From the IMG/VR virus record IMGVR_UViG_3300045988_110279: a DNA stretch of 64,000 nucleotides; one strand, given 5' to 3'. The DNA is from a virus. Below are positions 4,875-34,604 of this stretch, one piece after another. Below the pieces are notes generated by a model that was not told the DNA's origin, ran no database searches, and was given only the letters and a program-made list of their open reading frames with translations. Each line of letters begins with the position of its first letter. Positions within the stretch are counted from its first letter, which is position 1. Both the position numbers and the translations under genes were made by a program.

Positions 4875-5126
4875 TTAATCCTCGTTTTCTAAATTGATTT
4901 CTCCTATACAGTTACACCGTATCGGAGATTCAAAAACAAATTCATCTCCATATCCAACGATAGTTATTTCTCCATACTTTTTACAATACTCGTCTATCTT
5001 TTCGATTAGACTATTCCAATCTTTCTCTTGCGCTTTTTGTTTTCTAAGTGCCACTTCTTTATAGGCGGTAGCACTCAACCATTGCAACTCCTCATCATTC
5101 AGTTTGTTGAAATCAATATCAACCAT
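4875..5126 (-). CDS. hypothetical protein
   Basis: Track ORF, TAA stop. Confidence 0.55.
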   Translation of the reverse strand: MVDIDFNKLNDEELQWLSATAYKEVALRKQKAQEKDWNSLIEKIDEYCKKYGEITIVGYGDEFVFESPIRCNCIGEINLENED

Positions 5127-5143
5127 CTAAAAATCTCCTTTCT

Positions 5144-5596
5144 TTAATGAAAAATCTCAGCCGGAATTTCACTAAAAACTTGCTTAAATTGCTCCATAGT
5201 CAGTTCTCTTGCCGCTCTCTCAACCCTTTCTTTTGCCCAGTCGCAAACCATTTCGCAGGAAATAAATTTAATTTCATACCCAGTAATGGCGTAGATTTTA
5301 GGCGACCACTCAAATCTTTTTGTATCAGCCATATTTCCAGTTAAAATCATATATTCGCCGGTGGCTTGATTTTCTTCTGACTGTTCAACCCAACATTGAA
5401 CTATATTTTCAACATAGTTTTTTCCAGTTTTAACCGCTTCTTTTTCGGTTCGAGCATTGATTAAAAAGGTAGAAAGCATAATATCATCACGAAATGATAC
5501 CGTAAATTTATAAGGCTTCTTAGAGAAGATACCCTTGCGACCTTCACACCAAAAGGTAACTTGAAAATTAACACGAAATTGTTTTAAGCTTTCCAT
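5144..5596 (-). CDS. hypothetical protein
   Basis: Track ORF, TAA stop. Confidence 0.55.
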   Translation of the reverse strand: MESLKQFRVNFQVTFWCEGRKGIFSKKPYKFTVSFRDDIMLSTFLINARTEKEAVKTGKNYVENIVQCWVEQSEENQATGEYMILTGNMADTKRFEWSPKIYAITGYEIKFISCEMVCDWAKERVERAARELTMEQFKQVFSEIPAEIFH

Positions 5597-5768
5597 TTCT
5601 TTTATCTCCTGTAATAATCTTCAATATAAAATTTCATTTCTTTTTCTGTACTTTGTCTTAATACCGAATAAATAGTGGAAATGTCAAGGCAAGTTCTTTT
5701 AATTAAGAAACGAATGATAGAGTTTTTAAGTTTATTCATCATTTCTTTTACCTCCCTTCCATGGTTAA

Positions 5769-5797
5769 ATGATACCACATTTTCGGGAGAAAGTCAA
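5769..5797 (-). promoter_or_regulatory. sigma-A-type promoter TTGACT-17-TGgTATCAT
   Basis: Minus-strand -35/-10 with exact 17-bp spacer upstream of gene 5144..5596. Confidence 0.6.
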
Positions 5798-5806
5798 GCT
5801 GTCAAG

Positions 5807-5840
5807 TTGCACAAATTTTCAATTCAAAATTGTTGAAAAT
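5807..5840. promoter_or_regulatory. inverted-repeat operator TTGCACAA...TTGTTGAA
   Basis: One member of the repeated TTGCACAA-N-TTGTGCAA family, located just upstream of a -35 element. Confidence 0.5.
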
Positions 5841-5859
5841 GACAATAGAAGAAAAATTC

Positions 5860-5928
5860 GGACCGCGGCGCACGCAAGCGGTCCGCTCAAAATTTTGCAT
5901 AAAAAAATCTCCCCATAAGGGGAGATTT
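5860..5928 (-). terminator. tandem intrinsic terminators (GC hairpin 5860-5884; hairpin 5905-5928)
   Basis: Both stems are followed by T-runs on the minus strand. They lie downstream of gene 5933..6283. Confidence 0.6.
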
Positions 5929-5932
5929 TTCT

Positions 5933-6283
5933 TTAGTTGAGAATTATTGGATATGCCTTGCGAATAACCACCGTAACCATGGCCGGGGGAGTGTCGCACA
6001 AGAAACGATCATTTCTGATAAAACGACCAATTCCCATATTCTGCCACAAAGTCCGGTTTACATCCTCGTATCGTAGGGTATTATACTTGGAAAGTTTGAT
6101 ATGCCAATCATAGATAAAGGAACCATCTTCCGGCATGGTGTAATCTGGCGCCCGCTTATAATTTCTCGTATGCTCTGCGGCTCTGCGTTCAAGGTCATTT
6201 GTCGTACCAATCTTGAGAATATAGCGCCCCTTTTTGTCGATATAATGTCCGACATATAGGAACTCTTTTCCCCTTGTCTGCAA
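5933..6283 (-). CDS. GIY-YIG family nuclease
   Basis: FLYVGHY...YILKIGTTNDLERRAAEH matches the GIY...YIG...R...H(E) motif order. Confidence 0.55.
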   Translation of the reverse strand: MQTRGKEFLYVGHYIDKKGRYILKIGTTNDLERRAAEHTRNYKRAPDYTMPEDGSFIYDWHIKLSKYNTLRYEDVNRTLWQNMGIGRFIRNDRFLCDTPPAMVTVVIRKAYPIILN

Positions 6284-6339
6284 ACTAACTATAACTTGCC
6301 TCTTTTCTGGTAGGGCCGGGGTAGGCCGACCCTACCCCG

Positions 6340-6657
6340 TTATTTCTTCGGCTTACGCTTTTGCACAAGCGTCAACTCGAAACTATCCCCACCAATAGAA
6401 AACGCAATCTGTCTTTCCTTGTTAGTAATAGACAAGTCAGCGATAGAGAATTGACTGTTTTTTTCCAAAAACTCTGCCAATTCCGCAATTATACCGCCTT
6501 TCGTGGCGTTTGGCTTGCGTTGCCGTGTAGTGAACTTATATGCGGTTGGCTGTTTGCGCGTTCCAGCATGGGCAAACTTTTGAGCGATTTTCGCCTTTTC
6601 TGGCGGTAAATCGTATTCAGTCTTTTTATCAGCCTCTACCGCCTTATCATAGGCCAA
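6340..6657 (-). CDS. hypothetical protein
   Basis: Track ORF, TAA stop. GC hairpins flank it at 6302-6338 and 6762-6795. Confidence 0.5.
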   Translation of the reverse strand: MAYDKAVEADKKTEYDLPPEKAKIAQKFAHAGTRKQPTAYKFTTRQRKPNATKGGIIAELAEFLEKNSQFSIADLSITNKERQIAFSIGGDSFELTLVQKRKPKK

Positions 6658-6795
6658 TAAATCTGCCTCCTCTTCCGGCGTTAATTGCAGGGCTTTATAC
6701 CTTGCAATCCGTTCAGCGTCACTAATGCGACTGGATATAATATCACCCCCATATTATAAGTTAGGGCGGGGATTTTCACCCCGCCCTATACGGGG

Positions 6796-7206
6796 TTACG
6801 CCATCTTAAAGAGGGACTTGCCCTTCTTCTCCGTGCAGACTACTCGACCATCGAGTTTCAACTGCCGCACAAGAGCGGCGACCTTCTGGTTAGAATAGGC
6901 CGTCAGATCAGGAATAGCCTTAAAAATTTCCGTGCAGGTCACGCCATCGGTATCGGCGTCCAGACCAGCCAGATACTCCATAATCTGCTCCTTAAAGTTT
7001 TCGTTCTCCTGCTGGGTGGGAGTCAGCTTCTTGTCACCGCTGGAGCTATTCTTCTTACGCAGAAGCTCCAGCTCATGGTCAATGACAGTAATGGCCACCT
7101 CGATGGTAGTGCCATACTTTACCTCGCCGTCAGTCAAGAGGGCCTTAATGTCCTCAAAGCGCTGGGCCTTGGTAATGCGGATTTTCTTCTCGTCCATAAT
7201 ATACAT
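6796..7206 (-). CDS. hypothetical protein (possible C-terminal winged-helix)
   Basis: Track ORF. C-terminus reads KVAALVRQLKLDGRV. Confidence 0.5.
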   Translation of the reverse strand: MYIMDEKKIRITKAQRFEDIKALLTDGEVKYGTTIEVAITVIDHELELLRKKNSSSGDKKLTPTQQENENFKEQIMEYLAGLDADTDGVTCTEIFKAIPDLTAYSNQKVAALVRQLKLDGRVVCTEKKGKSLFKMA

Positions 7207-7245
7207 CCTTTCTGGTTTTTAGGACTGTCCTTGTCCTTTGATTAT

Positions 7246-7446
7246 ATTGTACCACACTATTTGGTACTTGTCAAGAGGTTTTTCAAACTTTTTTCAAGAA
7301 CTTTTGCTCTTTACTTGTTTGCCCTCTCAACCTCCCTTATAGTGTAACACACTTTGGAAAGTTTGTCAAGCCCTTTTTATTTAATTTTCAAGGTGCATTG
7401 CCTTGTTTTCTGTACTTATTATAGCACATCTTCAAAGGCTTGTCAA
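7246..7446 (-). promoter_or_regulatory. three tandem leftward promoters (P1 7246-7274, P2 7341-7369, P3 7418-7446)
   Basis: P1 is TTGACA-17-TACAAT, P2 is TTGACA-17-TACACT, P3 is TTGACA-17-TATAAT. All are on the minus strand. A 15-codon leader ORF with an AGGGAGG RBS lies between P2 and P1. Confidence 0.55.
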
Positions 7447-7553
7447 GAGATTCTTGAAAGATTTTTGAGAAATTCGCTGTCGCTGTCTGCCGTTCGTCTC
7501 TCTCACTTTCTGAATGTATTTTACCACAAGCAAAAGCAGATTGCAAGCGTCAA

Positions 7554-7632
7554 ATTGCACAAAAAATCTGAATTTTGGGAGAAAGTTTTTGTGCAGAATT
7601 TTACACAAAACGGAGCTGAAATTTTTGTGCAA
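7554..7632. promoter_or_regulatory. operator-like inverted repeats TTGCACAA / TTGTGCAG / TTGTGCAA
   Basis: Three half-sites of the same family. Confidence 0.5.
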
Positions 7633-7651
7633 CATTTACAAAGAAAAACTC

Positions 7652-7718
7652 GGGTCGCGCCGTTCCTGCGCGACCCGCTCAAATTTTGTATAAAAAAAGA
7701 AGGGCCGAAGCCCTTCTT
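7652..7718 (-). terminator. tandem intrinsic terminators
   Basis: gggtcgcgc...gcgcgaccc and aagaagggc-cgaa-gcccttctt, each followed by a T-run on the minus strand. Confidence 0.6.
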
Positions 7719-7900
7719 AACAGAAAATACAGTTATCCAGAAAATCAAACAGGTGTTCATCCTCAATGGGAACATTTACCAGCATATTTCCATCTTCGTC
7801 AATATCATCATGACACCATCCCATACGCTCAATAATTTGAATTGCCATATAAACGGCATCTGCGCACAGAGAAGAGGTATATACAGTTTTTGTTACCATT
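7717..7900 (-). CDS. small hypothetical protein (60 aa)
   Basis: Internal start MVTKT with a GAGGAGG RBS, inside track ORF 7717..8052. Confidence 0.4.
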
Positions 7901-8092
7901 TTATTCCTCCTCGAAATCATCAACTCCATATTGTCTCTGATATTCGTCACAGTCGAACCATGGCTCACCCAAAGAGCAACAAAGTGATTCCGTGTCAAAA
8001 TCTGGGCAGATAGTATCATAGATTTGTTCTGGGTCCATGCCTTCCTCGGCATAATGCGGGCAACTCCACCGCATACAATGAACTTGAGACAT
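7901..8092 (-). CDS. small acidic Cys-rich protein
   Basis: Track ORF of 63 aa. Confidence 0.4.
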   Translation of the reverse strand: MSQVHCMRWSCPHYAEEGMDPEQIYDTICPDFDTESLCCSLGEPWFDCDEYQRQYGVDDFEEE

Positions 8093-8119
8093 ATTATTTC
8101 CTTTCTGTCGGGCGGGGCT

Positions 8120-8911
8120 TTAAGCCCCTACCCGGATAGTTGGAATTGAACGCATACTTGCGGAAAGTTGACGCTGAAAATCTGTCATAGGTGGAAACTC
8201 TCTCTTATTCTCATACAGGGCCTTTCTCATGGGCTTATGCTGACGCATACAATACCACATGATTTCCGCCTCAATGAGAACATCCTCAAGCCCCGTATGA
8301 CTTTCTTCAAAATCGGTATTGCCAGAAATAAACCGCCACACGATTTCCGCAGTCTTACGAGGAACGCCATTGGCCTGGACATATCCGTTTTCCTGACAGA
8401 ATTTCTTATAAGTGGGCATATTGCAGATAACATCCTGTGTCATCTTCATAATGTCCCAGATTTCCACACTATCAAACGGGAACCAGTAGCGGAACTTGGA
8501 GCAAGTGACCCATCGTTGAGTGACCCGCAGAGCGTTATCGTCAAACCGGGCATTATAAGCAGCTACCTCTTTAATCCCGTATCGCTCGATGGTATCAAGC
8601 ATAGCCTGCCGGATTTCATAAGTTGTAGCCATCTTACGAGTGCCGGCCCGCAATTCTTCGACATAGCGGGGGATTTTCCAATTATAATAGGCCGTCCGCA
8701 TGAGATCCCGCTCATCGTTGAAAATGTCCCTATTTACAAAACTGGCAGTTTCATAAATATTGCCCTTGGTATCCACTACCGCCCATCCGCAATCATAGAC
8801 AAGAACGCAACTCATATCCATGCGGGCTTTGCCGTTTTCGTCAGTTTCAGTCAGTGTGTTAGCAGTTTCAGTATCAACCACCAAAACATAGTGTCTACGC
8901 TTATCAATCAT
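8120..8911 (-). CDS. DEDDh 3'-5' exonuclease (DnaQ/RNase T-like)
   Basis: Exo I motif VVDTETAN, Exo II motif AYNARFDDNAL and Exo III motif HTGLEDVLIEAEI. Confidence 0.75.
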   Translation of the reverse strand: MIDKRRHYVLVVDTETANTLTETDENGKARMDMSCVLVYDCGWAVVDTKGNIYETASFVNRDIFNDERDLMRTAYYNWKIPRYVEELRAGTRKMATTYEIRQAMLDTIERYGIKEVAAYNARFDDNALRVTQRWVTCSKFRYWFPFDSVEIWDIMKMTQDVICNMPTYKKFCQENGYVQANGVPRKTAEIVWRFISGNTDFEESHTGLEDVLIEAEIMWYCMRQHKPMRKALYENKREFPPMTDFQRQLSASMRSIPTIRVGA

Positions 8912-8943
8912 AATCTTTGACTTCCTTTCCTCTTGTTGAGTTT

Positions 8944-8972
8944 ATTATAGCACATATCATGCTTGATGTCAA
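8944..8972 (-). promoter_or_regulatory. promoter TTGACA-17-TATAAT
   Basis: Exact consensus on the minus strand upstream of the exonuclease gene. Confidence 0.65.
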
Positions 8973-9137
8973 GAGGAAAAGGAAATTTTTATTGCGATTT
9001 ACTGCAAGCTACTGGGCATTAGAACGGCCTATTCTAACGGCGTTCACTCGACTTACGACACAATATAAATTTACTTCCTTTACTTTCTAAGAGTTCGCGA
9101 CCTCTTGATTTCTTGGCCTTCCCCTCTTGACAAATAT

Positions 9138-9166
9138 ATAATACCATACTTTCGGGATAATTACAA
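9138..9166 (-). promoter_or_regulatory. promoter TTGTAA-17-TATTAT
   Basis: Cassette promoter. A short leader ORF with an AAAGGAAG RBS follows it. Confidence 0.4.
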
Positions 9167-9175
9167 GATGGCAAA

Positions 9176-9207
9176 TTGCACAAAATTTGCAAGCCAAAAT
9201 TGTGCAA
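9176..9207. promoter_or_regulatory. inverted repeat TTGCACAA-N16-TTGTGCAA
   Basis: Best-formed copy of the operator family. Confidence 0.55.
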
Positions 9208-9228
9208 CATCGACAAAAACAAAAACTC

Positions 9229-9300
9229 GGCTCGCCGCGTGCGCCAGCGAGCCGCCCAAACGATATTAAAGAGTAAAAATAAGAGGGCCGAAGCCCTCTT
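9229..9300 (-). terminator. tandem intrinsic terminators
   Basis: ggctcgc...gcgagcc and aagagggc-cgaa-gccctctt with T-runs on the minus strand. Confidence 0.6.
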
Positions 9301-9487
9301 AATATCCAAGATATTCTTTATTAATAATCTCGTCAAGCCAATAGCTCAAATCTTCAAGCGAAATATCGTCATCAATTTCATTGTCGGCCATAACCTGATC
9401 AATTTGACCAATGAGAATGGACGCATTTTTCAATACTTGTCGCTCTTCCTCGCTGAGGATAAGCCTATTAACCTTTCTAATCTTCAT
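9299..9487 (-). CDS. small acidic hypothetical protein
   Basis: Track ORF of 62 aa ending at the terminator. Confidence 0.5.
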   Translation of the reverse strand: MKIRKVNRLILSEEERQVLKNASILIGQIDQVMADNEIDDDISLEDLSYWLDEIINKEYLGY

Positions 9488-9527
9488 TTACAAAACTTCC
9501 TTTCTTATTTTAAGATTGACTGGTGGA

Positions 9528-9992
9528 TTACTCTACCAGTCGCCATAAGGCCGTAGGTAAATCTTCATGCGGTTCGATTGTTTCTCCTAAATGCCAACCA
9601 TCCCGCACACTTTTATTATCGTCAATCAAAATAAAATTGCTAACCCCCGGCTCGAAGTATTTTCGCACACAGTTTGCTTTTGTTGTGCCATATTCCACAA
9701 GGTGGACTTTATGTGCGGGGAAGTTGTATTTTGCAAGCCAAGTGCGCTTTGCATCACGGACAGCGGTTTTATATGAGTTAGAACTGTCTTTTGCAAGCCA
9801 ACTGATAACCCGAATTTCCCAGCCCTGCTCAATAAGTTTATTGAGAACGGTATTCAATTCTTCCATATCGCAAAGAGGTTTAGCGACTGTATATGGATAG
9901 GGGTTTTCATTCATTAAATCTTTCAGCCATCCATCTACGCCGTACAGGTCAGCGATTGTTCCATCCATATCAAAGCAGAGCATCTTTTTCAT
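9528..9992 (-). CDS. HAD-superfamily 5'-nucleotidase-like phosphatase
   Basis: N-terminal CFDMDGTIADL (the DxDGT motif I). Confidence 0.55.
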   Translation of the reverse strand: MKKMLCFDMDGTIADLYGVDGWLKDLMNENPYPYTVAKPLCDMEELNTVLNKLIEQGWEIRVISWLAKDSSNSYKTAVRDAKRTWLAKYNFPAHKVHLVEYGTTKANCVRKYFEPGVSNFILIDDNKSVRDGWHLGETIEPHEDLPTALWRLVE

Positions 9993-10024
9993 TTTGATTT
10001 ACTTCCTTTCTTTAGGTTGATTAA

Positions 10025-10053
10025 AGTATATCAGATTTCGGGATAGAAAACAA
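10025..10053 (-). promoter_or_regulatory. promoter TTGTTT-17-TATACT
   Basis: Cassette promoter upstream of gene 9528..9992. Confidence 0.4.
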
Positions 10054-10061
10054 GAGGCAAA

Positions 10062-10093
10062 CTGCACAAAATTTCGGCTGGAAAATTGTGCAA
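10062..10093. promoter_or_regulatory. inverted repeat CTGCACAA...TTGTGCAA
   Basis: Operator family copy. Confidence 0.5.
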
Positions 10094-10114
10094 CTTCTAC
10101 AAAAGAGAAAATTC

Positions 10115-10193
10115 GGCGCGCCACGCACGTTAGCGCGCCGCCGAGAAGCCTATTCAAAAAATGGGATAAAAAAGAGGGCCGAAGCCCTCTTTT
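10115..10193 (-). terminator. tandem intrinsic terminators
   Basis: ggcgcgc...gcgcgcc and aagagggc-cgaa-gccctctt. Confidence 0.6.
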
Positions 10194-10653
10194 ATCTTTC
10201 ACATATATTTGCAAGAAATCTTGCAGAAAGTTTAACCATGTCATGGACAGATTCTTCGTTATTGCTATTTTTATAGCAAATAAAACCAACCTGGTCGCCA
10301 TTCACAAGAATTGGTGTAATAAACATACTTTCCCATTTTGTCGCCGAACTGCGAATATCAATCCAGTCATCGGGAACTCTTGTAATTCCAAAGGAACGCG
10401 GCCCGCATAAAATTCCATCATTGTCAAAAATAGCCGCGGCGATTCCGTTAGATGAAAGGGCATTTTGCATTTGTTTAGCGTAAGAGGAAAATTCTCCCAT
10501 TATAGAATATTTCTTAAAAACTACGCCGCCATCTTCTTCAAGAAAAATCTCTAATGGGTCGCCTTCTCTAATATGAAGGCTTCTACGGATTTCCTTTGGA
10601 ATTACTATCCGGCCCAAATCATCAATACGGCGCACAATTCCAGTAGCTTTCAT
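10192..10653 (-). CDS. AbrB/SpoVT-family transcriptional regulator (N-terminal swapped-hairpin domain plus C-terminal GAF-like domain)
   Basis: MKATGIVRRIDDLGRIVIPKEIRRSLHIREGDPLEIF matches the AbrB/SpoVT N-domain. Confidence 0.75.
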   Translation of the reverse strand: MKATGIVRRIDDLGRIVIPKEIRRSLHIREGDPLEIFLEEDGGVVFKKYSIMGEFSSYAKQMQNALSSNGIAAAIFDNDGILCGPRSFGITRVPDDWIDIRSSATKWESMFITPILVNGDQVGFICYKNSNNEESVHDMVKLSARFLANICER

Positions 10654-10705
10654 TTTTATCTGCGGGAGTGCAAGATTTATAGTCTTGCACTCCCTTCCTC
10701 CATTC

Positions 10706-11098
10706 TTAATCCAGTTCTTTCAACATCCGTTCGAGGTCAGCTTTAGTACCACCCAACTCAAGCGTAAGAATAATTTCCGTTACGGCATTTTTCTCCCAGT
10801 CGCTAACTTCCCGCATGGCCTTTTTCTTCTCGTTCTCCATAGCGGGGTAAATACAATCCTGGCAAGCCTCTACCAGCCGGTCATTATATCTGCGGAAACT
10901 CATCCCCTTGTTTTTAACCTCCGAAAGAAGTTCGTCGTTAAGGGCTTTTACCGCCTGCTTAACTTTCTCCTGCATGATTTTACACTCTGTCTCATAAGCG
11001 GAAAAGGTTTCATGGACAGCCTGCCTCTTGATTTCAGCCTTTACTCCAACTTCCTTTTCAATATACTCCCGAACAACCTTACTAACACGCATTTCCAA
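10706..11098 (-). CDS. hypothetical protein
   Basis: Track ORF. Confidence 0.5.
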   Translation of the reverse strand: MEMRVSKVVREYIEKEVGVKAEIKRQAVHETFSAYETECKIMQEKVKQAVKALNDELLSEVKNKGMSFRRYNDRLVEACQDCIYPAMENEKKKAMREVSDWEKNAVTEIILTLELGGTKADLERMLKELD

Positions 11099-11144
11099 AA
11101 CTTCCTTTCTTAATTTTAATTTTTATTTATCGGGGTCGCCCCTT

Positions 11145-11180
11145 CCATGGTCTTATTGTACCATAGTTGGGGCGATTTGT
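11145..11180 (-). promoter_or_regulatory. promoter TTGACA-17-TACAAT
   Basis: Minus strand reads ggggTTGACAaatcgccccaactatggTACAAT. Confidence 0.6.
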
Positions 11181-11187
11181 CAACCCC

Positions 11188-11340
11188 TTACATCAAAGTT
11201 TTTGCAAGATACGCAAACATTAAAATCTCCGCCGCAAACATGATTTCAAGTCCTATGCAATCTCTTTCAATAGCGGCTACAAATTGCCATACCAGACATA
11301 GAACAAAAGCAATCAGAATTATCATGGTAAAAGTTGTCAT
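11188..11340 (-). CDS. small membrane protein (~50 aa)
   Basis: Internal start MTTFTMIILIAF with a GGGGTGAG RBS. Confidence 0.4.
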   Translation of the reverse strand: MTTFTMIILIAFVLCLVWQFVAAIERDCIGLEIMFAAEILMFAYLAKTLM

Positions 11341-11344
11341 ATAC

Positions 11345-11602
11345 TCACCCCGCAAAGGAAACTTCCGCAAAGTTGATATTGAAACGCTCCCATTCACTTT
11401 CCATACCTAACATCATATCATGGAAAAGGTCATCACGATTTTCATATCCATCTTCTTCCAGAATAGCCTCCCATTCTCCATCGTCATATTGATTTTCCAG
11501 ATAATCCAAAGCAGACTTGCGGGCGGCGATGGTATTAGACGCTACGCAGATAGGTTTATCGTCGTATCCGTCCGTGACCAAAATCATTTTCTTTTCTTCC
11601 AT
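11345..11602 (-). CDS. acidic hypothetical protein
   Basis: Start MEEKKM with RBS AAAGGAAAG, TGA stop. Confidence 0.45.
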   Translation of the reverse strand: MEEKKMILVTDGYDDKPICVASNTIAARKSALDYLENQYDDGEWEAILEEDGYENRDDLFHDMMLGMESEWERFNINFAEVSFAG

Positions 11603-11655
11603 GATTTTTTCTTTCCTTTCTTTCGAGGTGTTTCTGTCTCCCTCTTTCTGATAAT

Positions 11656-11684
11656 AATATACCACAGGCAAAGCAGAAAGTCAA
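11656..11684 (-). promoter_or_regulatory. promoter TTGACT-17-TATATT
   Basis: Cassette promoter. Confidence 0.45.
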
Positions 11685-11713
11685 GCGATTTTAGGAAAAA
11701 ATCTTTCGTCAGA

Positions 11714-11745
11714 TTGCACAACAATTCGAGCCTAAAATTGTGCAA
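11714..11745. promoter_or_regulatory. inverted repeat ATTGCACAA...TTGTGCAA
   Basis: Operator family copy. Confidence 0.5.
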
Positions 11746-11767
11746 ATTGCCTCTTGATAAAAAATTC

Positions 11768-11835
11768 CGGCCGCGCCTGTGGTGCACGGCCGGGCGAACA
11801 AATAAAAAAAAAGAACCTCCTGAATTTCAGGAGGT
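11768..11835 (-). terminator. tandem intrinsic terminators
   Basis: cggccg...cggccg and acctcctg-aattt-caggaggt. Confidence 0.55.
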
Positions 11836-11875
11836 CATTAATTTCTGCATACCAACAACTCCCTTTCTTTTGAGA

Positions 11876-12106
11876 AGTCAATCGGCATTTTCAACAATCT
11901 TTAATCCGTTTGCTTGGATAATTTTCATAGATTCTTCAAGCGAGGAATCAACCGATCCGCAGTCAATACAGATATATTTTCTACCATCTTTTACCATAGT
12001 AGTGAAATAGTATTCCTAACCGGAAGTAAGTCCCATTTGTTCACGCAAACGAATCGGAATCATAATTCTACCACTTGAATCTAATTTGCGAGAGAAAGTA
12101 GTTTCT
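11876..12106 (-). CDS. AbrB/MazE-like swapped-hairpin DNA-binding protein with one in-frame TAG
   Basis: MQETTFSRKLDSSGRIMIPIRLREQMGLTSG(TAG)EYYF... The frame is complete only if TAG is sense. No obvious SD. Confidence 0.4.
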
Positions 12107-12175
12107 TGCATTTTGATAAATAAATTCTAGTGACCTAGGCTCGTGCGAAAAACGACTCCATCACGGGAATCGCCG

Positions 12176-12313
12176 ATTTAGAACAATCGGAAGGAACATT
12201 TACCACTCGCAAGGCATTTTCTGGCAGAACTGAGACATAGGACAATTTTACAAGAATCCTAGTTCAAACAGAACTCCAAAATAACCGCAAGCGCTTTCAG
12301 CACTTCTAAGGTC
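12176..12313 (-). CDS. small Cys-rich protein (45 aa, one TAG)
   Basis: RBS AAAGGAG 8 nt before the ATG. Confidence 0.3.
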
Positions 12314-12516
12314 ATTAGAAAAACTCCTTTCTTTATTTTTCTATAATTATTATAATATATTTTTTTGAAAAAATCAATAGGGCCGGCATTACGCCAGCCC
12401 TAATCTCTGCAACCAAACCAGATGGTATTTACCAATGTGAAGTAGAACTGTGCCATATCCCTTATCCGTCCAGACAGTGGAGCCGATAGGATATGTGTGC
12501 GGTAAACGCTCAATAC

Positions 12517-12732: not shown

Positions 12733-12755
12733 ATTTATTCCTCCTTTTTATCATG

Positions 12756-16748: not shown

Positions 16749-16750
16749 TT

Positions 16751-26304: not shown

Positions 26305-27357
26305 ATGTTAGATAAAGCTAATTTACTTAGTTTAATGAAAACTGTCGCTAATGCAAATCCTTCTGGTACCTATAGCTATCAAGGAGAGTCTTTTAGCTAT
26401 GACGCTTTAAATACCACTTTGCGTAATGAGCTAAATGAATTTGTTGGCACAGATGAACTTTATAGAGAAAATAAAAATACTCTATTCTCTTTAATTGAGC
26501 AGACTATGGATGAAGTTGTTCCTAATCGTTTACTCAATTCTTATGGCAATTTTGCTGAGATTAGAACTTTCGCACAAGGCGACAAGCCTGTATTTACTCG
26601 TAGAACTGGACTTACTCGCGCTAAGCAATTCATTACTCGTGTGGGGCTTGCTGGTGTGTATGAGACCTTTAAGCTTGGTTCTGAGAGCTTCGAAGTTGGA
26701 ACAAGCGCCATTGGTGGAGCTGCTCGTATCGGATTTGAGGAGTTCCTTGATGGAAGAGTAAACTTTGCAGAACTTACTCAAATTGTAACAGAGGGTATGC
26801 AAGAGCTTATTTATAGAGAGATTGCTCAAGCTCTTATGGGTTCTATCAATCAGCTTCCCGCGGCAAACCGTTGTGCTGTTGCTGGTTTTGACGAACCAAC
26901 TATGGATTATCTTGTAAATACTGCTACTGCTTATGGTCAACCAACTATTTATTGCACTCGTGAGTTTGCAGTAAAAATGATTCCAGATAATGATGCTTGG
27001 ATTTCTGACAATATGAGAGATTAGTATTGGGGAACTGGTTATCTTGCAAATTACAAGGGAACTAGAGTGGTAATTCTACCTCAAACTCTTGAAGATGAGA
27101 CTAACTCCAAAAAGATGATTGATCCAGGTTATGCTTGGATTATTCCTGGTGGAGCTGAGAGCCGTCCTGTAAAAGTTGCTTTTGAGGGTACTACCCACGT
27201 GCGCGAACGCGATGATAATGACGACTGGTCTCGTGATATTCAGGTTTACCGTAAGGTTGGTGTCGGTGTAATGATGGCGAATAACATCTTCTCTTATGTT
27301 GATACTGAACTTCAAGGCGAGCTTGATAATACTAACCCAAATCCAAATAATGGTTAA
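26305..27357 (+). CDS. major capsid protein (HK97-fold sized, 350 aa; single TAG at 27022)
   Basis: Track ORFs 26305..27024 and 27067..27357 are the same frame joined by one TAG. Position is between scaffold and a terminator. Confidence 0.6.
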
Positions 27358-27363
27358 TTGACA

Positions 27364-27400
27364 GGGGATAGGGAAATATCCCTATCCCCTTTTATTTATT
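27364..27400 (+). terminator. intrinsic terminator after the capsid gene
   Basis: ggggataggg-aaata-tccctatcccc followed by TTTTATTT. Confidence 0.7.
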
Positions 27401-27421: not shown

Positions 27422-27955
27422 ATGAAAAATAGTTGCACTGTTTATAATAAGAGCGCAGGTCGTGTTGTATATAGATTGCCTGAATTGGGCGTGCGCCGTA
27501 TGTTTTACCCTGGAGAACACAAGGAACTTGAAGTATCTGAACTAGAAAAGCTAGTACAAACGCCTGGAGGCCGCAAATTAATTTATAATTACTTACTTGT
27601 AGATGATAGAGAGATTGTTAAATATCTTATTAATGGTAGGGTTGAACCAGAGTATTGGATGAAAGAAGAAGAGATTGATTCTTGGATGAATACGTGTTCT
27701 TTAGATGAATTTAAGGATGCTCTTGATTTTGCTCCAGAAGGCACTAAAGATCTGATTAAATCCCATGCTATTTCTCTTCCTTTAAATGATATGTCTAAAA
27801 GAGATGCTTTGGAAAAACAATTAGGATTTAATGTTACTAAAGCATTAGAATTAACAGCAGATGATAAAAAGAATCCTAAGGAAGAGAAACCTGTAAGAAG
27901 AGTGTCAACTACAAGTGAGGATGCTCCAAAACGCAGAGTAGCTATTTCTGATTGA
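27422..27955 (+). CDS. hypothetical structural protein (TAG-free)
   Basis: Track ORF. Confidence 0.5.
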   Translation: MKNSCTVYNKSAGRVVYRLPELGVRRMFYPGEHKELEVSELEKLVQTPGGRKLIYNYLLVDDREIVKYLINGRVEPEYWMKEEEIDSWMNTCSLDEFKDALDFAPEGTKDLIKSHAISLPLNDMSKRDALEKQLGFNVTKALELTADDKKNPKEEKPVRRVSTTSEDAPKRRVAISD

Positions 27956-27974: not shown

Positions 27975-28517
27975 ATGGATAATAAGAAATATCCAATTTA
28001 GGGCGATCCGACCCCCTTTGAAGAAATTTATGATAGATTTTTTGGCAAAATTACTGATGATATGTATATGGAATGGACATAGGAAGATACTGAAAAAGAT
28101 TTGTATAACATCCTAATGGATGCACTTCCTGGTTTTGAGTTCCCTCGTTTTCCATTATACAGTTTTACCAATATAGAAAATAATGATGAAGAGACTGGAA
28201 TAGCAACTATTATTCCAGCCTTTTCTGCACATTTAACGATAGAAGAAATAAATATTCTTGCTATTCTAATGTATAATACTTGGTTACAACGCCAGGTGGC
28301 TTCAATAGAATAGACGAGAATGAAATATTCTGGAACAGATTTTAAAATGACTTCCTAGGCCAATCATTTAGCCAAATTAATAGAGTTGAAAAAGGAAGCA
28401 GAACGTCAAAGTCATCATATGCAGCGTCTCTATAAAAGAAGAAAACTAATTGATAATCAAGGCTCTTATAAATCAAACTGGTCAACATTAAGAGAGATGA
28501 GTGTTTTTGATGGATAA
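27975..28517 (+). CDS. head-tail connector/completion protein (putative)
   Basis: ATG after GGGAGG. Includes track ORF 28101..28313. Confidence 0.4.
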
Positions 28518-28818
28518 ATATGATATTAATTTCCCATTAGAAACAAAAGAGTAGGATTTAAAGAGATTGATTAATTAGTTATGGAAGTTAATTCCAATGA
28601 GAGAGAATAATGAAGACTGGGTAAATCATTTGAATGTAATAACAGAAGAAATTAGTGGATTAGTTAAAATGTATAAAGATAGAGTTGAGGGACTTATTTT
28701 ATTGTCTAAACTGGAAGGGTTATCTTCAAATGTCTGTAATGATTTTATGATTTATCGAAAAACAGTCTTTAGATGTATTGATTTGTTGGCGTAGGTGATT
28801 AGAGATGACGAATCTTGA
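28510..28818 (+). CDS. hypothetical protein
   Basis: Overlaps the previous gene by 8 nt (ATGGATAA). Includes track ORF 28597..28794. Confidence 0.35.
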
Positions 28819-29797
28819 ATTAATGCGAAAAAGATTTGAATGGTAGGGTGGTATTCACTAGGAAGATAGAATGATCAAAGATAAATGGAGAACTCTTTAG
28901 AAAGCATTATTATATTCTTATCAAGCCTGTACTGTTCAATTAGTCTAGAAGTCAACCTAGGTTTTAGATGCAACGTTAGATGCTGTTGATCCAGATATGA
29001 ATATTTATCCTATGTGTCGTGCGCTTATTAATCCAGATAAAGTGAAACAGGACTATGATGATAAGATAATCTCCATAGATCATATTAATCAATATGAGCC
29101 TGGAGATGTCTTTGAGTGGAAAAAAACTGGCACTCATTGGATAATTTATCTTGAAGAAATAACTGAGGACGCTTATTTTAGAGGGGAAATAAGACGTTGT
29201 AGATATAGAATTAAGTTTAAAGATTAGAAAGGGAATTGGTGTTAGACTTGGGCTGCGATTCGAGGTCCAGTTGAAACCCAAATCGAGTCTATTTAGAAGA
29301 ATCAAGAAAGATTGGATAAACCTAATCTTAGCTTAAACATACTTATGCCAAGAAATGAAAAAACTATTCATGCTTTTGATAGATATAGTGAATTTTTGTT
29401 CGCTGGAAGATGTTGGAAAGTTTAGGCTCCAGATGATATAAGTATGAAGAATGTAATTGAAGTGAGTGCAGAAGAAGATTATATAAATAGAGATACTGAT
29501 GATATAGAAAATAGTATGAAAGATGGTTTAATATTCGAACCAGAAGATCCTACTCCAAATAGCGGGATTATGGGAGAGACTTTTATTAAACCAATGATAG
29601 AAGAATCTTATTCTGTAGAAGAAGCTAATGGAGCTTGGTCAATATTAGAAAAGAATGTTCCTGTAACTTTATGTCCAAATGGAAATAAATCTGTTTAGTT
29701 GGTGTGGAATAAAACTACTCATGGTCAATTCACTCTAGTATGGAAGAAGGATAATACTGTACTGGAAAAAGTTATTGTAGTAGAATCTTTATTTTAA
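28805..29797 (+). CDS. hypothetical structural protein (330 aa)
   Basis: Joins track ORFs 28997.. and 29444.. through TAGs. Confidence 0.45.
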
Positions 29798-29812
29798 GGA
29801 GAGTGAATTGAA

Positions 29813-30349
29813 ATGAAAAAAAATACTTATGAGTATCCTAAATCTAGTTTGTTAGGTATGTAGAAAGATGCTTCTCTGATTATGGAAAGAATACTTTCTA
29901 ATTAGAATGTTTTGAAATTATTAACTTATAATACTAGAGATTGGAAAAGTAAACCGACCGTTACAGGAGATATGATAAAGGAAATGATTGATACTAAGTA
30001 GATTTCTGCTGTTCCTAAGATAAAGGTTGATAGACCAGAAAAATCTTATTTAAGATTGATTTATGGCACTATGGTTAGAAATTCTACAAATCCTGAATAT
30101 AGAGATAATACATTTGGTATTGATATTATTTGTCATTATGATAATTGGGATTTGGGAGATTATGATTTACGACCTTATCGAATTGCGGGAGAGATAGATT
30201 CAATGCTTGATGGAACTCATTTAACGGGTATAGGAGAGCTAGAATTTGTATCAGCTACGCCATATATATATGATGAAGAATTTGCTGGTTTGTCTCTAAC
30301 ATATCTTGCTATTCGCGGAAATGAAGATAAGGTAAATCCGCTTGCTTGA
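29813..30349 (+). CDS. hypothetical structural protein
   Basis: RBS AAGGAGAG. Includes track ORF 30056..30349. Confidence 0.45.
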
Positions 30350-30365
30350 TTATAGATTAGCTTTA

Positions 30366-31091
30366 ATGGCCGGAATTGATATTCCCATTCCTGAATTACA
30401 ACTTACTATTCACGTTCCCGTCATTAAAGAGATAGCTCTTATGGGAGAGACAAAATTTTTTATGGCAGTTCAATATTTATGTTTAGATAAAGAATCATTA
30501 ATATAGGACGAAACTCTTTTATCATCATTAACTAATTTTCAAGTATTGATGAAGGTGTTAGAATAGTCACAGGATAAAGATAAAAAAAATGCTGTTATTA
30601 TGCTACTTACATTATTATTTCCTGATTATATACCAGTAATAACTAGAAATTCAATAATTTTAACTAAGCAAGGAGAAAATTAGCCTTTGTTAATAGATGA
30701 TAATAACTTTGATATTTTTCAAAGCGTACTAAAAGAGATTTTGTGTGTAAACAGTCTATTTTAGGGAAATAATGTTATCTATAATCCAGCTAATGACCGA
30801 GCTAAAGAAATTGCTGAAAAGTTAATGCGCGGTAGACGAAAAGTAGCAGAAATCAAAAGCAAAGGAAATAATGAGAGTGTTCTAACACGCTATATATCTA
30901 TCTTGACAATCGGATCTAATACGATGAGTTTAGAGGATTGCTTAAATCTAAATATGTTTTAGATATTTGATTTGATGGAAAGATATAATGCGTTTATTGA
31001 ATGGGATGTTGACTTGCGGGTTCGTCTTGCGGGCGGCAAACCAGATAAACCAGTTGAATCATGGATGCGAGATATACATCCTAAAAATTAA
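30366..31091 (+). CDS. hypothetical structural protein (241 aa)
   Basis: Continuous frame with 5 TAGs, ending at TAA before the AAGGAGG of the next gene. Confidence 0.4.
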
Positions 31092-31105: not shown

Positions 31106-32497
31106 ATGCGTTTTGGTATTCGTGAGATTTGCGATGTAGTACTTCGTGCCAAAAGCTATCAGACTTTAGGTAATCGTAAGTTCTATAAAAATGAACCAGT
31201 TTTGTACTTTGACACTTTAAGAACCTCTACTCTTGAAGGTGCTGCAACAACTGTATACGCACAGGGCGGACGTGGATATACTAGATTGATTGCTTGGGAA
31301 GGTGAGCGTACTCTAACATTTACAATGGAAGATGCTTTACTTTCTCCAGAGAGCTTCTCTATTCTTTCTGGTGCAGGTCTGCTTGATGCAACAAAAGAAG
31401 CTCCAATTTACGTTCATCAAACTTCTCAGGTAGAAGTTGAAACAGCTAACACTATCGTAATTCCTGATAAAGCCTGTTGGAATGGATTTGCAGATCATGA
31501 AAATGAAATGTATCATCGTTCTGCTGACATTTTTGTAATGGTATTAGGAGATGATGGTCAAGTTAATGCTGAACCATGCATTCCTGTTTCTGTTTCTTAT
31601 ACAGAGGACGGAAAATCAACTTTAACTTGCTATTCTCATGCGGGAGTGCTCCCATCTGGTACTATCGTTTTAGTTGACTATTATGTAAAGCGCACTGGTG
31701 GTGCCCAGATGATTGAGATTACCGCTGATAAGTTTGGCGGAAACTATTATCTTGAAGCTTCTACTCTATTCCGCCGTGAGAGCGATGGCGTAGATATGCC
31801 TGCTGAATTTATTATTCCTAACTGTAAGGTTCAGAGTAACTTCACATTCAGCATGGCTGCTAACGGTGATCCATCTACCTTTACATTCACAATGGACGCT
31901 TTCCCAGACTACACTAAGTTTGATCAAACTCATAAAGTTCTTGCCGCTATTCAGGTAATTACTGATGAAACTGGAGAAACCGAAGGTTCTCGTGAGCCAT
32001 GCTCTGAGAATGTTGGTACTTATGAGAGTGAAGCCGCTGATGTAACTGTAAATTTTGTTTCTAACAGTGCCACAGAGGCGGAACTTGATGTAACTGGTAC
32101 TGTAACAGGAAAGGCTTATGATACTGAGGCTTATGGAGATACAATTCCAGAAGCCGCACAAATTAGCCTCCAAATTCCAGTAGAGAGCGATAGTACCAAG
32201 TATACTGTAGTAACAACTAACCCAGCATATGAGAAATACTTCTCTACTGATGACCGTATTGAGGGCAATACAAAGACTCAAACCGTAGATGGCGCAGAAT
32301 TGGCAGATGGCCTATTAGTAATTCTTACTAAGGAGAGTAATACAACTCCTATTACAGCTAAGATTACTAAGATTAACGGAGACTTTGAGAAGAGTTATAC
32401 TATTAATAACAAGCTCAGTTTTGCAGAAAGCACAAGCACTTATTCTGGCGCAAAAATGCGCAATAAGTTAGTCTCTGTTAGCGACGACACCATTTAA
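31106..32497 (+). CDS. major tail protein (tube or sheath-like, with Ig-like insert); TAG-free
   Basis: Track ORF of 463 aa with a strong RBS and its own terminator. Confidence 0.45.
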   Translation: MRFGIREICDVVLRAKSYQTLGNRKFYKNEPVLYFDTLRTSTLEGAATTVYAQGGRGYTRLIAWEGERTLTFTMEDALLSPESFSILSGAGLLDATKEAPIYVHQTSQVEVETANTIVIPDKACWNGFADHENEMYHRSADIFVMVLGDDGQVNAEPCIPVSVSYTEDGKSTLTCYSHAGVLPSGTIVLVDYYVKRTGGAQMIEITADKFGGNYYLEASTLFRRESDGVDMPAEFIIPNCKVQSNFTFSMAANGDPSTFTFTMDAFPDYTKFDQTHKVLAAIQVITDETGETEGSREPCSENVGTYESEAADVTVNFVSNSATEAELDVTGTVTGKAYDTEAYGDTIPEAAQISLQIPVESDSTKYTVVTTNPAYEKYFSTDDRIEGNTKTQTVDGAELADGLLVILTKESNTTPITAKITKINGDFEKSYTINNKLSFAESTSTYSGAKMRNKLVSVSDDTI

Positions 32498-32503
32498 TTT
32501 TAA

Positions 32504-32538
32504 GGGAGGACTTAATAAAGTCCTCCCTTTTTCTTTTT
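32504..32538 (+). terminator. intrinsic terminator
   Basis: gggaggac-ttaataaa-gtcctccc plus a T-run. Confidence 0.7.
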
Positions 32539-32556
32539 ATAAGGAGATATAGGAGT

Positions 32557-33999
32557 ATGGATGTTAATATTTATGATTATGTATAGCGTTGGTCTTTAAA
32601 TTATATTGTTTATCATAGTAGTCATTTAAGAGAATACGGAGATGTAGAGTCCGCAAATATTCTCTTTAGTGGATAGTATCAAGAGGCAATGAGTAAAATG
32701 AAGACTGCGGGAATTGAGACTTAGATTGTATCAATTCAAGAATAGATGCGGTCTAAAGGTCCAGTTGCCGCGAGTGGGTTAAGAGTTTTGAGTGATTTAT
32801 AGATTGGTACCTTATTGGATTCTACTCTTGATTAGATCGCGGCAGGTATCAATGAAGGAATTGAATTAGCCGGTGGATAGGTAAATTTTGAGAATTATAA
32901 TACTATATTACAATAGGCTGGCAATTTTAATAATTTGTTGGCTAATGGGGCACCTGATATAAAAAGAGTTAATGATTTTTTTAGATTATTGATATAGGCT
33001 CTTATGAAAGCCAATATGATAAATGTCAATGTTCTTGATGCTTTAGCCTAGATAGGAAGATCGCTAATTGGTACTAGTTTTTAGATAGATAATTCTTAGC
33101 AGCACTATGTTATGTCCATTGAAGATGGGGATATCAATGTAGCGAAAGAAGTAATAGATTCGTTGAGTAGAGCGGTTTCAAGATTAAATGAAGGTGGAAG
33201 TGTAAACTCTAGATCTTTTGCTAATACAATATCATATATTTTTAGAAAAGTTATTGGAAATTAGATTAGTCAAGCTATAGTCGCAGAAGGTATATCTATT
33301 GGAATTAATACTGCGGATAGTATATTAGATACTGCTATTAAGTAGTCTGGTGGGAAATTAAAGTGGGTTGATAGAGGATAGAATACTACTTCTGACAATG
33401 GAAGTAGAGGTGCTGTTAAAGTTTTTAATAATGATGTTTTTAATTTGTCAGTAACTAAGGGTAATCAAGTATTTAATATAGAAATTAGTGCTAATGTTAA
33501 TGCAAAGTGGTAGAATAAAAAGAAATCTGCAAATAGAATTTAGGTTTTTTCAAATATGAATGTAGGGGATTATTTTTCTGGTTAGCCAGAAAAATATCTT
33601 GCTTATAATATGATTGCTCATAGATTCACTGGATCAGATTTTGAAGAATCTTTTAATAATATTCGTGCATCGGTAGCCGCCTCATTTTTTAATGAATGGG
33701 TTTCTTCTGGCGGTCTAGCTTCTTCTAAAGGACATCTTGGTCAGTTACTTATTGTTAATGGTAAAGTTTTTTCTATTTAGCGTATTATAAATAATATTTG
33801 TGATGACATAGTTCGCAATAGCGGTCATGAAATAGTTTCTATTGGGGGAGAAAATTCTACTGGTAATAAGTGGTATGGAAATACTGGTCCAAATGTATTA
33901 GACGCTTTAACTCGTAGTAATATAGTTAATGAAGTTATAAGTAAATTAACAATTTCTGCTACATTAAACAATAATATATTGTCTAAATACGCATATTAA
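32557..33999 (+). CDS. hypothetical tail-associated protein (480 aa, ~24 TAG codons)
   Basis: RBS AAGGAGA. Continuous only with TAG as sense; reads naturally with Gln at the TAG positions. Confidence 0.45.
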
Positions 34000-34003
34000 A
34001 AAC

Positions 34004-34032
34004 TTGACAATAGTTAATTTTTCTAGTATAAT
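34004..34032 (+). promoter_or_regulatory. promoter TTGACA-17-TATAAT (perfect consensus)
   Basis: Minus 35 at 34004-34009 and minus 10 at 34027-34032, upstream of the chaperone and tape-measure genes. Confidence 0.6.
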
Positions 34033-34064
34033 AAAAATATAAATGAGATAAAGGAGTTTTTACA

Positions 34065-34604
34065 ATGAGTGAAATTACTTTTAAAGATTTGGGTTTGGAG
34101 CCTAAAATTAAATATACAGAAGTAAAAATTGGAGAAGATAAGATTTTATCTGTGGTTAATTATCTTCCGATTGCAGATAAAACAAATCTTATTACTTTTG
34201 TCGCAGATTTAGCGATAGATGAGATGACTGGGTGTTTTAGTCCGGTAAGAGTAGAAACTTATTTTGCTATTGCTATTTGCAGATGGTATGGTGGAATTGT
34301 TTTTGAGCAAGAAGATGTGCATGAAAATATTGCCAAAACTTATGATACACTAGAGACTAATGGTGTTATTGATGCAGTTAGAAGTGCTATTCCAGTAGAT
34401 GAATTGTCTTTTATTGAAGACTTAGTTAGAGATACTTTAAGCGATATAGCAAGATATAATAACTCTGCCGCAGGCATTATCCAAATGATGAATAAAAATG
34501 CTTCTGGATTAGATACATATATTACTGATATAATGGAAAAAATTAAAAATGGTGAGAATCTTGAAACTTTATCAGTAATTAAAGATGTGGTTGGAAAAGA
34601 TTAA
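34065..34604 (+). CDS. tail assembly chaperone (putative); TAG-free
   Basis: Track ORF of 179 aa immediately upstream of the tape-measure gene. Confidence 0.4.
   Translation: MSEITFKDLGLEPKIKYTEVKIGEDKILSVVNYLPIADKTNLITFVADLAIDEMTGCFSPVRVETYFAIAICRWYGGIVFEQEDVHENIAKTYDTLETNGVIDAVRSAIPVDELSFIEDLVRDTLSDIARYNNSAAGIIQMMNKNASGLDTYITDIMEKIKNGENLETLSVIKDVVGKD

Follow-up and report, generated by a model that had tools for sequence, protein, structure and literature searches.

The 64-kb stretch of viral DNA analyzed here (IMG/VR record IMGVR_UViG_3300045988_110279; hereafter, the window) is part of a gut phage, a phAss-1-like siphovirus of about 120 to 145 kb that is related to SPbeta and EF1 and in which alignments indicate that TAG is read as glutamine. 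We found that the genes of this phage differ sharply in their use of TAG. A leftward array of short open reading frames (ORFs) and five rightward genes, among them those for the major capsid protein (MCP) and the probable major tail tube protein, are nearly devoid of the codon, whereas the 21 remaining rightward genes use it for about half of their glutamines. We put at about 70% the probability that TAG is selected against in genes whose translation precedes the supply of suppressor tRNA or whose output must be maximal.

TAG content of the leftward and rightward genes

The window has a G+C content of 35%, and its ORFs with 100 or more codons account for 35.6 kb in code 11 versus 82.3 kb when TAG is taken as sense. 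Reading TAG as sense restored the genes for the portal (phrog_2739, 1.6e-80), the large terminase and the capsid protein (phrog_4088, 7e-61), as well as a 2908-codon tail gene with 101 in-frame TAGs. All of 30 related IMG/VR loci, whose capsid proteins range from 100% down to 55% identity to that of the window, were likewise TAG recoded. A tblastn search gave 52% identity between the capsid protein and its counterpart in phage phAss-1 (OQ749652). Among its remoter relatives are capsid genes of Enterococcus EF1-like, SPbeta-like and Bacillus siphophages, of which some bear the annotation major capsid protein. A megablast search with 25 kb of the window against GenBank phages returned no match.

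In an alignment with the related locus L005, 64 window TAGs faced TAG, 24 faced CAA or CAG and 9 faced codons for other residues. In distant lineages, the spectrum of replacements at window TAGs was the same as that at CAA and CAG sites. Because the TAGs align mainly to TAG, CAA and CAG and are substituted like CAA and CAG sites, these comparisons indicate that TAG is read as glutamine. The authors who described phAss-1 reached the same conclusion for that phage (PMC10607447); peptide proof of glutamine at TAG has been obtained for crAss-like phages only.

Genes were called with TAG as sense and a self-trained codon model, the leftward array coming from a separate call limited to the minus strand. 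ORFs were delimited by TAA and TGA only, so that all called genes end in one of these codons by construction (26 TAA and 7 TGA in the array). One doubtful ORF of the array, 9034-9336, stops at a TAG under code 11 and reaches a TAA 5 codons beyond. Rightward genes are designated below by their first coordinate, and the three classes compared as follows.

Leftward array, 4875-17098 (minus strand; 33 ORFs, 3278 codons): at most 5 TAGs (1.5 per 1000 codons), 0.05 of the glutamine codons (5/96); off-frame TAG, 12-15 per 1000
TAG-poor rightward genes 25596, 26305, 27422, 31106 and 34065 (1398 codons): 1 TAG, 0.03 of the glutamine codons (1/37); off-frame TAG, 18-24 per 1000
The 21 remaining rightward genes (11149 codons): 284 TAGs (25.5 per 1000 codons), 0.52 of the glutamine codons (284/544); off-frame TAG, 16-27 per 1000

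Tested on glutamine codons, the depletion was highly significant for the five pooled rightward genes (P=6e-11) and for the array (P=2e-23), and some of the TAGs counted in the array sit in doubtful ORFs such as 12178-12456, which contains a terminator. Off-frame TAG was common in all three classes, and the depletion is therefore frame specific; within the array, in-frame TAG was about 10-fold rarer than off-frame TAG. A first-pass annotation of the window had described the array as nearly TAG free, 25596-26285, 27422-27955, 31106-32497 and 34065-34604 as lacking TAG, and the capsid gene as having a single one. Counting gave exactly zero for each of the four genes and one TAG (27022-27024) for the capsid gene. 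The neighboring genes, credited with 5 to 25 TAGs each, turned out to have 3 to 19. TAG density is thus far from uniform across the array and the rightward genes.

The TAG fraction was homogeneous among the 21 TAG-rich genes (chi-square P=0.29) and became heterogeneous when the five TAG-poor genes were added (P=3e-4). Taken singly, 25596 (P=0.003), 26305 (P=0.001) and 31106 (P=1e-4) were significantly depleted. Genes 27422 and 34065 have 2 glutamine codons each (P=0.23 per glutamine codon, P=0.011 per codon), and their depletion is significant only per codon or through comparison with TAG-free orthologues. CAG made up 32% of the glutamine codons in the five genes versus 9% in the 21 others.

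Position was an imperfect guide to TAG content. Two minus-strand genes just outside the array, 17098-17886 and 17870-18211, contain 11 TAGs in 375 codons, so that the split runs along genes or transcription units and not along strands. The plus-strand gene 2198-2836 is also TAG rich.

Conservation, codon usage and terminators of the capsid and tail tube genes

The TAG-poor rightward genes and the elements next to them are as follows (all on the plus strand).

25596..26285: beta-rich protein, between the scaffold-like and capsid genes; 0 TAG, 8 CAA/CAG; extreme codon bias
26305..27357: major capsid protein gene, by homology; one TAG (27022-27024)
27363..27390: strong terminator-like hairpin, 12 bp plus T-run, 6 nt past the capsid stop
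27422..27955: 177-amino-acid protein; 0 TAG, 2 glutamine codons; TAG present in its L011/L021-lineage orthologues
31106..32497: probable major tail tube protein, its C-terminal domains Ig-like; 0 TAG, 12 CAA/CAG
32502..32529: strong terminator-like hairpin, 5 nt past the tail tube stop; position kept in relatives
34004..34674: self-contained cassette (promoter, TAG-free 34065-34604, terminator)

Sequence searches of the five proteins against Pfam, NCBIfam and the PDB gave nothing useful, and an AlphaFold prediction for 25596 was of too low quality to identify it (predicted local distance difference test [pLDDT], 48.7). For 31106, which has more than 8000 homologues, the model (pLDDT, 63.5) matched siphovirus tail tube proteins, including those of SPR, Chi and YSD1, with low template modeling scores. 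We consider 31106 the probable major tail tube protein on this structural likeness. The first-pass annotation had equated the TAG-free rightward genes with the most abundant virion proteins; this fits the capsid protein, assigned by homology, and the tail tube protein, assigned by fold matches to a low-confidence model, but 25596, 27422 and 34065 have no such assignment.

The orthologues of 26305 and 31106 contained no TAG in 9 of 9 loci from about six lineages, down to 52 to 55% identity. When the orthologues of all five genes were pooled, TAG was absent from L001, L005, L006, L009, L012, L019 and L028; L011 had three and L021 had two, all of them outside the capsid and tube genes. Orthologues of 25596 contained one TAG, in one lineage, and those of 34065 none. 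In every lineage, the flanking genes did carry TAG (per-lineage P from 2e-13 to 9e-3), and our reanalysis of phAss-1 found the same TAG-free set of scaffold, capsid and tube genes. The single TAG of the window capsid gene is CAG in five close relatives (L001-L003, L005 and L023) and TAG in one (L004), and is therefore a fresh C-to-T polymorphism.

The five genes also differ from the 21 TAG-rich ones in their remaining codons. CGT, CGC, CTT, ATT, GGT and GCT are raised, AGA, TTA, AGG, CGA, CGG, GGG and TCG are lowered, and ATA falls to 0.05 versus 0.31. TAG was the most discriminated codon of all (odds ratio 0.03, P=2e-10), followed by ATA (odds ratio 0.11). The preferences of the capsid and tube genes are the textbook high-expression pattern of low-GC Firmicutes. 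In a principal component analysis of relative synonymous codon usage from which the glutamine codons were omitted, 31106, 26305 and 25596 lay at the extreme of the first component (PC1, 31% of the variance). PC1 correlated with the TAG fraction (Spearman rho 0.61, P=0.002), also when restricted to TAG-containing genes (0.61, P=0.007), so the link with codon adaptation for which a check had been suggested was borne out.

The 38-kb late block has only three strong plus-strand terminators consisting of a hairpin and a T-run, and these lie 5 to 39 nt past the stops of 26305, 31106 and 34065 (P=0.004). Of 6 other lineages scanned, 5 had a hairpin where the capsid terminator lies, its sequence being different in the distant ones; the positions of the late-block terminators are conserved while their sequences diverge. 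Altogether, the capsid and tube genes carry a high-expression codon signature and private terminators and are maintained TAG free.

Gene 34065 has a different character. Its promoter (34004-34032) matches the sigma-A consensus at 12 of 12 positions and is conserved at 11 to 12 of 12 in 7 of 7 lineages checked, and its terminator lies at 34643-34674. These signals give it the look of a cassette for the host polymerase set within the late region, which would fit the early class better than the abundant one. The rest of the rightward block, also on the plus strand, consists of the following.

18281..18309: sigma-A-type promoter (TTGACA-17-TATTAT with TG, 11/12) heading the TAG-laden block
18310..25582: TAG-rich genes, including two for zinc finger proteins
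20560-22305: terminase large subunit, 13 TAG
22683-24308: portal, 12 TAG
24353-25582: scaffold-like gene, 5 TAG (intermediate)
27975..31091: five genes at the place of the head-tail connectors, each with 3-10 TAG
32557..33999: most TAG-dense late gene of at least 150 codons (19 TAG in 480 codons, 73% of glutamine codons)
34710..56669: TAG-saturated tail genes
34710-43436: tape-measure-like protein, 2908 codons, 101 TAG
43488-47402: tail gene, 26 TAG
48635-51424: tail gene, 28 TAG

The promoter at 18281 is kept in L005, L006 and L009, and L028 has an equivalent 11/12 site with TG. The late genes may thus be transcribed from this conserved promoter without requiring a phage polymerase. A 17-bp hairpin (43429-43465, dG -28.6) overlaps the stop of the 2908-codon gene, its T-run being on the minus strand only. 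No lysis cassette was identified within the 64-kb window.

Leftward array, promoters and suppressor tRNA

The features of the leftward array and of its edge (all on the minus strand) are listed below. The promoters are putative, called as matches to a 12-position sigma-A consensus, which do not by themselves show expression.

4875..17098: the array itself, with some 33 short ORFs and essentially no TAG by gene calls and orthologue comparison; G+C at third codon positions (GC3), 0.405
10192-10653: AbrB/SpoVT-like regulator
15336-15773: PTH2 peptidyl-tRNA hydrolase (PF01981, 1.2e-22)
15758-16525: microbial poly(ADP-ribose) glycohydrolase, PARG (PF10021, 6.6e-26)
6080..14717: eight sigma-A-type promoters matching at 11/12 or better, an extended -10 TG being present in six
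6107-6080, 7274-7246, 7446-7418 and 8972-8944: the first four of these promoters
11183-11155, 12590-12562, 13115-13087 and 14717-14689: the last four
17098-17886: FolD-like gene, 3 TAG, next to the divergent junction; exception to the TAG-free leftward genes
17870-18211: TAG-rich gene, 8 TAG in 113 codons, next to the divergent junction; exception likewise

Shuffled sequences gave 0.17 ± 0.37 near-consensus promoters where the minus strand of the array has 8. The interval 6080 to 14717 also contains at least 11 intrinsic-terminator-like hairpins on that strand, and the promoters and terminators together therefore divide the array into many short cassettes. With this density of near-consensus promoters and terminators, the array looks like the early-transcribed class. 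PHROGs and Pfam yielded homologues for few of its genes; the AbrB/SpoVT-like regulator, PARG and PTH2 would fit a role in host takeover, and PARG is a plausible counter-defense enzyme against ADP-ribosylating host systems.

Ten genes of the array have orthologues in the more distant locus L034, from which they differ at 323 codons by synonymous changes (about 40% of synonymous sites). Of 20 conserved glutamine sites, 7 had switched between CAA and CAG and none involved TAG. Late genes compared at lower divergence interchanged CAA or CAG with TAG dozens of times. Such heavy synonymous turnover without a single TAG argues that TAG is selected against in the array and has not merely yet to arise. 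The first-pass annotation had proposed that early genes avoid TAG because suppression is absent or inefficient early in infection. The proposal is supported in part: the host-type promoters and terminators and the TAG-free orthologues agree with a TAG-free early class, and inefficient early suppression would be a possible reading of them.

Several other arrangements were seen in and around the array. A tandem double-terminator module occurs in four minus-strand copies (7640-7730, 9217-9313, 10103-10208 and 11756-11848), its first hairpin usually being GGGCTTCGGCCC followed by a T-run and its second a GC-rich 10-bp stem with compensatory changes between copies. Among the TAG-free minus-strand genes lies a plus-strand island, 2198-2836 and 2993-3430, bounded by a bidirectional terminator at 3563-3594; in 2198-2836, which has a weak ScpB/winged-helix match, TAG accounts for 11 of 12 glutamine codons. 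GC3 was 0.405 in the array, 0.244 in the five TAG-poor rightward genes and 0.217 in the neighboring late genes. In phAss-1 (L047-L049), most TAG-poor genes, including the right-end arrays of small genes, have a GC3 of about 0.4 to 0.8 and the TAG-rich tail genes one of 0.13 to 0.26. The GC3 contrast suggests two codon regimes, perhaps the host tRNA pool versus a phage-supplemented pool.

We found no tRNA gene of any kind within the 64-kb window. Walking outward through near-identical contigs revealed a leftward-strand array of 26 to 28 tRNAs that begins about 7 kb left of the window. Apart from it, a second tRNA cluster contains a tRNA(CUA) with a U1.U72 mismatch (L130, 14929-15004; likewise in L133, L135 and L136), in contigs whose capsid proteins are 100% or 97% identical to that of the window. 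This tRNA clearly resembles one of the phAss-1 suppressors. A 12/12 sigma-A promoter with an extended -10 TG precedes it by about 440 nt, and TAG is missing from the ORFs next to it and just downstream. As these phages encode the suppressor themselves, it must be made after infection. That the TAG-free genes are transcribed early fits the sequence, with sigma-A-type promoters in the array and ahead of 34065 and the tRNA(CUA); another such promoter, at 18281, heads the TAG-laden block.

In phAss-1, two suppressors lie beside the anaerobic ribonucleotide reductase gene; no suppressor in that location was found in the window's lineage. A 117-nt tRNA-like gene (L042, 15254-15370; L041, 15880-15998; Rfam tRNA, 49.8 bits), directly 3' of a tRNA-Gln(UUG)/tRNA-Gln(CUG) pair, has normal acceptor, D and T arms and an insert of about 55 nt in the anticodon arm that forms extra hairpins. 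ARAGORN detects it only with introns allowed and then proposes implausible anticodons, and we rejected it as a suppressor candidate for want of a CUA anticodon loop. An ARAGORN call of a tRNA(UUA), an ochre suppressor, at L137 19916-19990 is doubtful given its non-canonical loop with G instead of U at position 33; L137 is a relative in which the flanking 307-amino-acid protein is 79% identical. Within the tRNA array of some close relatives there is also a transfer-messenger RNA (tmRNA; L042, 12385-12700; Rfam, 114.6 bits; tag DNDYFENYLAA). PTH2 and tmRNA look like a ribosome rescue kit, which would be sensible if unsuppressed TAGs stall or abort translation.

Probable selection against TAG, alternatives and known systems

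According to the explanation that we favor, AT-biased mutation of CAG to TAG would have driven TAG to about half of the glutamine codons wherever it was tolerated, and purifying selection would keep two kinds of genes free of it. The first would be those that the host polymerase, in its unmodified form, transcribes from consensus sigma-A promoters, namely, the leftward array, the cassette of 34065 and the tRNA gene region seen in relatives; they would have to be translated with the standard code that the host uses, before or independently of the supply of suppressor. The second would be the capsid and tail tube genes; each virion needs hundreds of copies of their products. There, TAG would be the worst of a disfavored set that includes ATA, AGA and TTA, since one phage tRNA would decode it, presumably in competition with host release factor 1, and each TAG would cost yield. 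Observed were the counts and their conservation, the alignment of TAG with glutamine codons, the suppressor tRNA of the relatives with its promoter, the promoter and terminator classes and the correlation with codon bias; the timing, the competition with the release factor and the expression levels are what we infer.

Several observations weigh against this explanation. The suppressor tRNA is seen in near-identical relatives and not in the window itself. The homogeneous TAG fraction of the 21 genes resembles a division into two classes more than it does a smooth dose-response, and the TAG-rich genes at the head of the leftward strand (17098-18211) and on the plus-strand island (2198-2836) make class unpredictable from position alone. 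Codon usage in 34065 is not biased (PC1, +1.9), the optimal codons were deduced from within the phage, and the tail tube assignment depends on a low-confidence model. The bases 3' of TAG, finally, offer no independent indication that efficient read-through has been selected for. In-frame TAG did differ in its 3' context from CAA and CAG (P=6e-5), but not from other NNG or NAG codons (P=0.13 to 0.28); we rejected the 3' base as evidence of read-through, the effect being a generic dinucleotide one.

Could base or amino acid composition alone leave some genes without TAG? Counting TAG as glutamine, glutamine makes up 2.6 to 2.9% of the residues in the five genes and in the array versus 4.9% in the 21 others, a GC-richer sequence would also lower the expected number of TAGs, and 27422 and 34065, with their 2 glutamine codons each, are unremarkable by this measure. 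Per glutamine codon, however, the depletion remains extreme (1/37 and 5/96 versus 284/544), and off-frame TAG is as frequent in the five genes as in the TAG-rich ones. We therefore hold a compositional artifact to be highly improbable, and for 25596, 26305, 31106 and the array it is largely refuted. Equally improbable in our view is a mosaic origin, by which standard-code phages or hosts would have donated the TAG-free genes too recently for TAG to build up in them. The composition of the array is indeed clearly different (GC3 of 0.405 versus 0.22), the TAG-rich genes of phAss-1 form a separate low-GC3 class, and few array genes have PHROGs or Pfam homologues. Against this, the five rightward genes have a GC3 like that of their neighbors and are syntenic and TAG free across lineages down to 41 to 55% identity. 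The array orthologues in L034 have exchanged CAA and CAG at about 40% synonymous divergence without acquiring any TAG, and the recent CAG-to-TAG polymorphism in the capsid gene shows that mutational input exists and is normally removed.

The roles of the two codon classes might also be reversed. If the rightward block were transcribed early by the host polymerase, TAGs could have been positively selected to delay translation of virion and tail proteins until suppressor accumulates, the capsid and tube being exempt; TAG enrichment would then be the adaptation and TAG-free genes the default, with capsid and tube accumulating first or most. The conserved 11/12 promoter with TG at 18281-18309 that heads the TAG-laden block speaks for such a gate, Borges et al. 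proposed the same logic for lysis and late genes (10.1101/2021.08.26.457843), and TAG is mildly in excess within the first 50 codons (33 versus 17 CAA/CAG, P=0.034). This positional excess is weak along whole genes, however (Kolmogorov-Smirnov P=0.16), and AT mutation pressure on CAG would, without positive selection, produce a uniform TAG fraction of about 0.5 over 21 genes; CAG is nearly exhausted in them (9%). The general correlation with codon bias likewise points to avoidance in a few genes and not to enrichment in many. We consider such a gate unlikely, though compatible with selection against TAG and not exclusive of it. A bolder version, which we regard as decidedly doubtful, makes the late switch translational instead of transcriptional, with transcription from 18281 running from the start of infection and the single suppressor tRNA acting as a timer. 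Under that equally doubtful scheme, the presence or absence of TAG and the local terminators would determine when and in what proportions virion proteins are made, the capsid and tube escaping the gate; and, just as speculatively, the phage PTH2 and tmRNA would clear ribosomes stalled at unsuppressed TAGs.

Selection against TAG, as we favor it, would extend the rule of standard-code early genes and recoded late genes to a Firmicutes-type siphovirus family, the SPbeta/phAss-1-like one. The orthologues provide comparative proof that the TAG-free status is actively maintained through saturating synonymous change, and the reassigned stop codon behaves as the least-favored synonymous codon in the highest-output genes. 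One practical consequence is that the capsid and tube genes of such phages are detectable by standard-code gene callers while their neighbors fragment, which may partly explain why Cook et al. could still recognize the MCP with table 11 in 57% of code-15 genomes. TAG density per gene, together with promoter class, could predict expression class in uncultured recoded phages.

The partition into standard-code early and recoded late genes, with a code switch as its rationale, is established for crAss-like, Lak, Agate and other phages (10.1101/2021.08.26.457843; PMC9523058; 10.1101/2022.06.29.495998), and code-15 gut phages with this partition were also described by Ivanova (2014) and Yutin (2021). 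The window phage resembles them in reading TAG as glutamine, in the phage-encoded suppressor that its near-identical relatives have in DNA compatible with the standard code and in combining TAG-free, apparently early genes with TAG-rich structural and tail genes, the features for which a code switch during infection has been proposed. As the model of Borges et al. expects, its putative early genes (5 TAGs in 3278 codons) and the surroundings of the suppressor in relatives (TAG-free ORFs by the tRNA) are compatible with the standard code. When these authors tested gene families for preference for the recoded codon, lysis genes and a crAss-like tail tube family were enriched; they report no TAG-free capsid or tube class, and the word "capsid" is absent from the preprint (10.1101/2021.08.26.457843). 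The tube gene of the window, being TAG free, is thus the opposite of the TAG-preferring crAss-like tube family.

The closest described system is phAss-1, of the proposed Phassvirus group (Babkin et al., 2023), with TAG-to-glutamine recoding, three suppressor tRNAs and 36 tRNAs in all, and with recoded ORFs described as "mostly virion genes"; an analysis of TAG density per gene is absent from the published work on this group (PMC10607447). It belongs to the same lineage as the window phage (capsid 52% and tail tube 59% identical; gene order shared from terminase to tape measure) and likewise has TAG as glutamine and, as in near-identical relatives of the window, a suppressor tRNA and a large tRNA set. 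The window lineage is far more TAG saturated (about 52 to 54% of late glutamine codons), and one suppressor tRNA was detected in the regions scanned of it versus three in phAss-1. For an amber-reassigned crAss-like phage of Segatella copri, an MCP gene without alternative codon usage was reported and translational efficiency invoked (10.64898/2026.08.21.746148). The idea of a TAG-free capsid gene is the same, but that preprint concerns a single genome from an unrelated phage order and the capsid gene only, without comparative, codon bias or terminator evidence. The codon pattern of the capsid and tube genes is also like classical translational selection in highly expressed structural genes, except that the most avoided "synonymous" codon is here a reassigned stop codon. 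The early/late split is thus already well known and a TAG-free capsid gene has been noted once; the window phage is a clean example and no new principle, to which we have added comparative, promoter, terminator and codon bias evidence.

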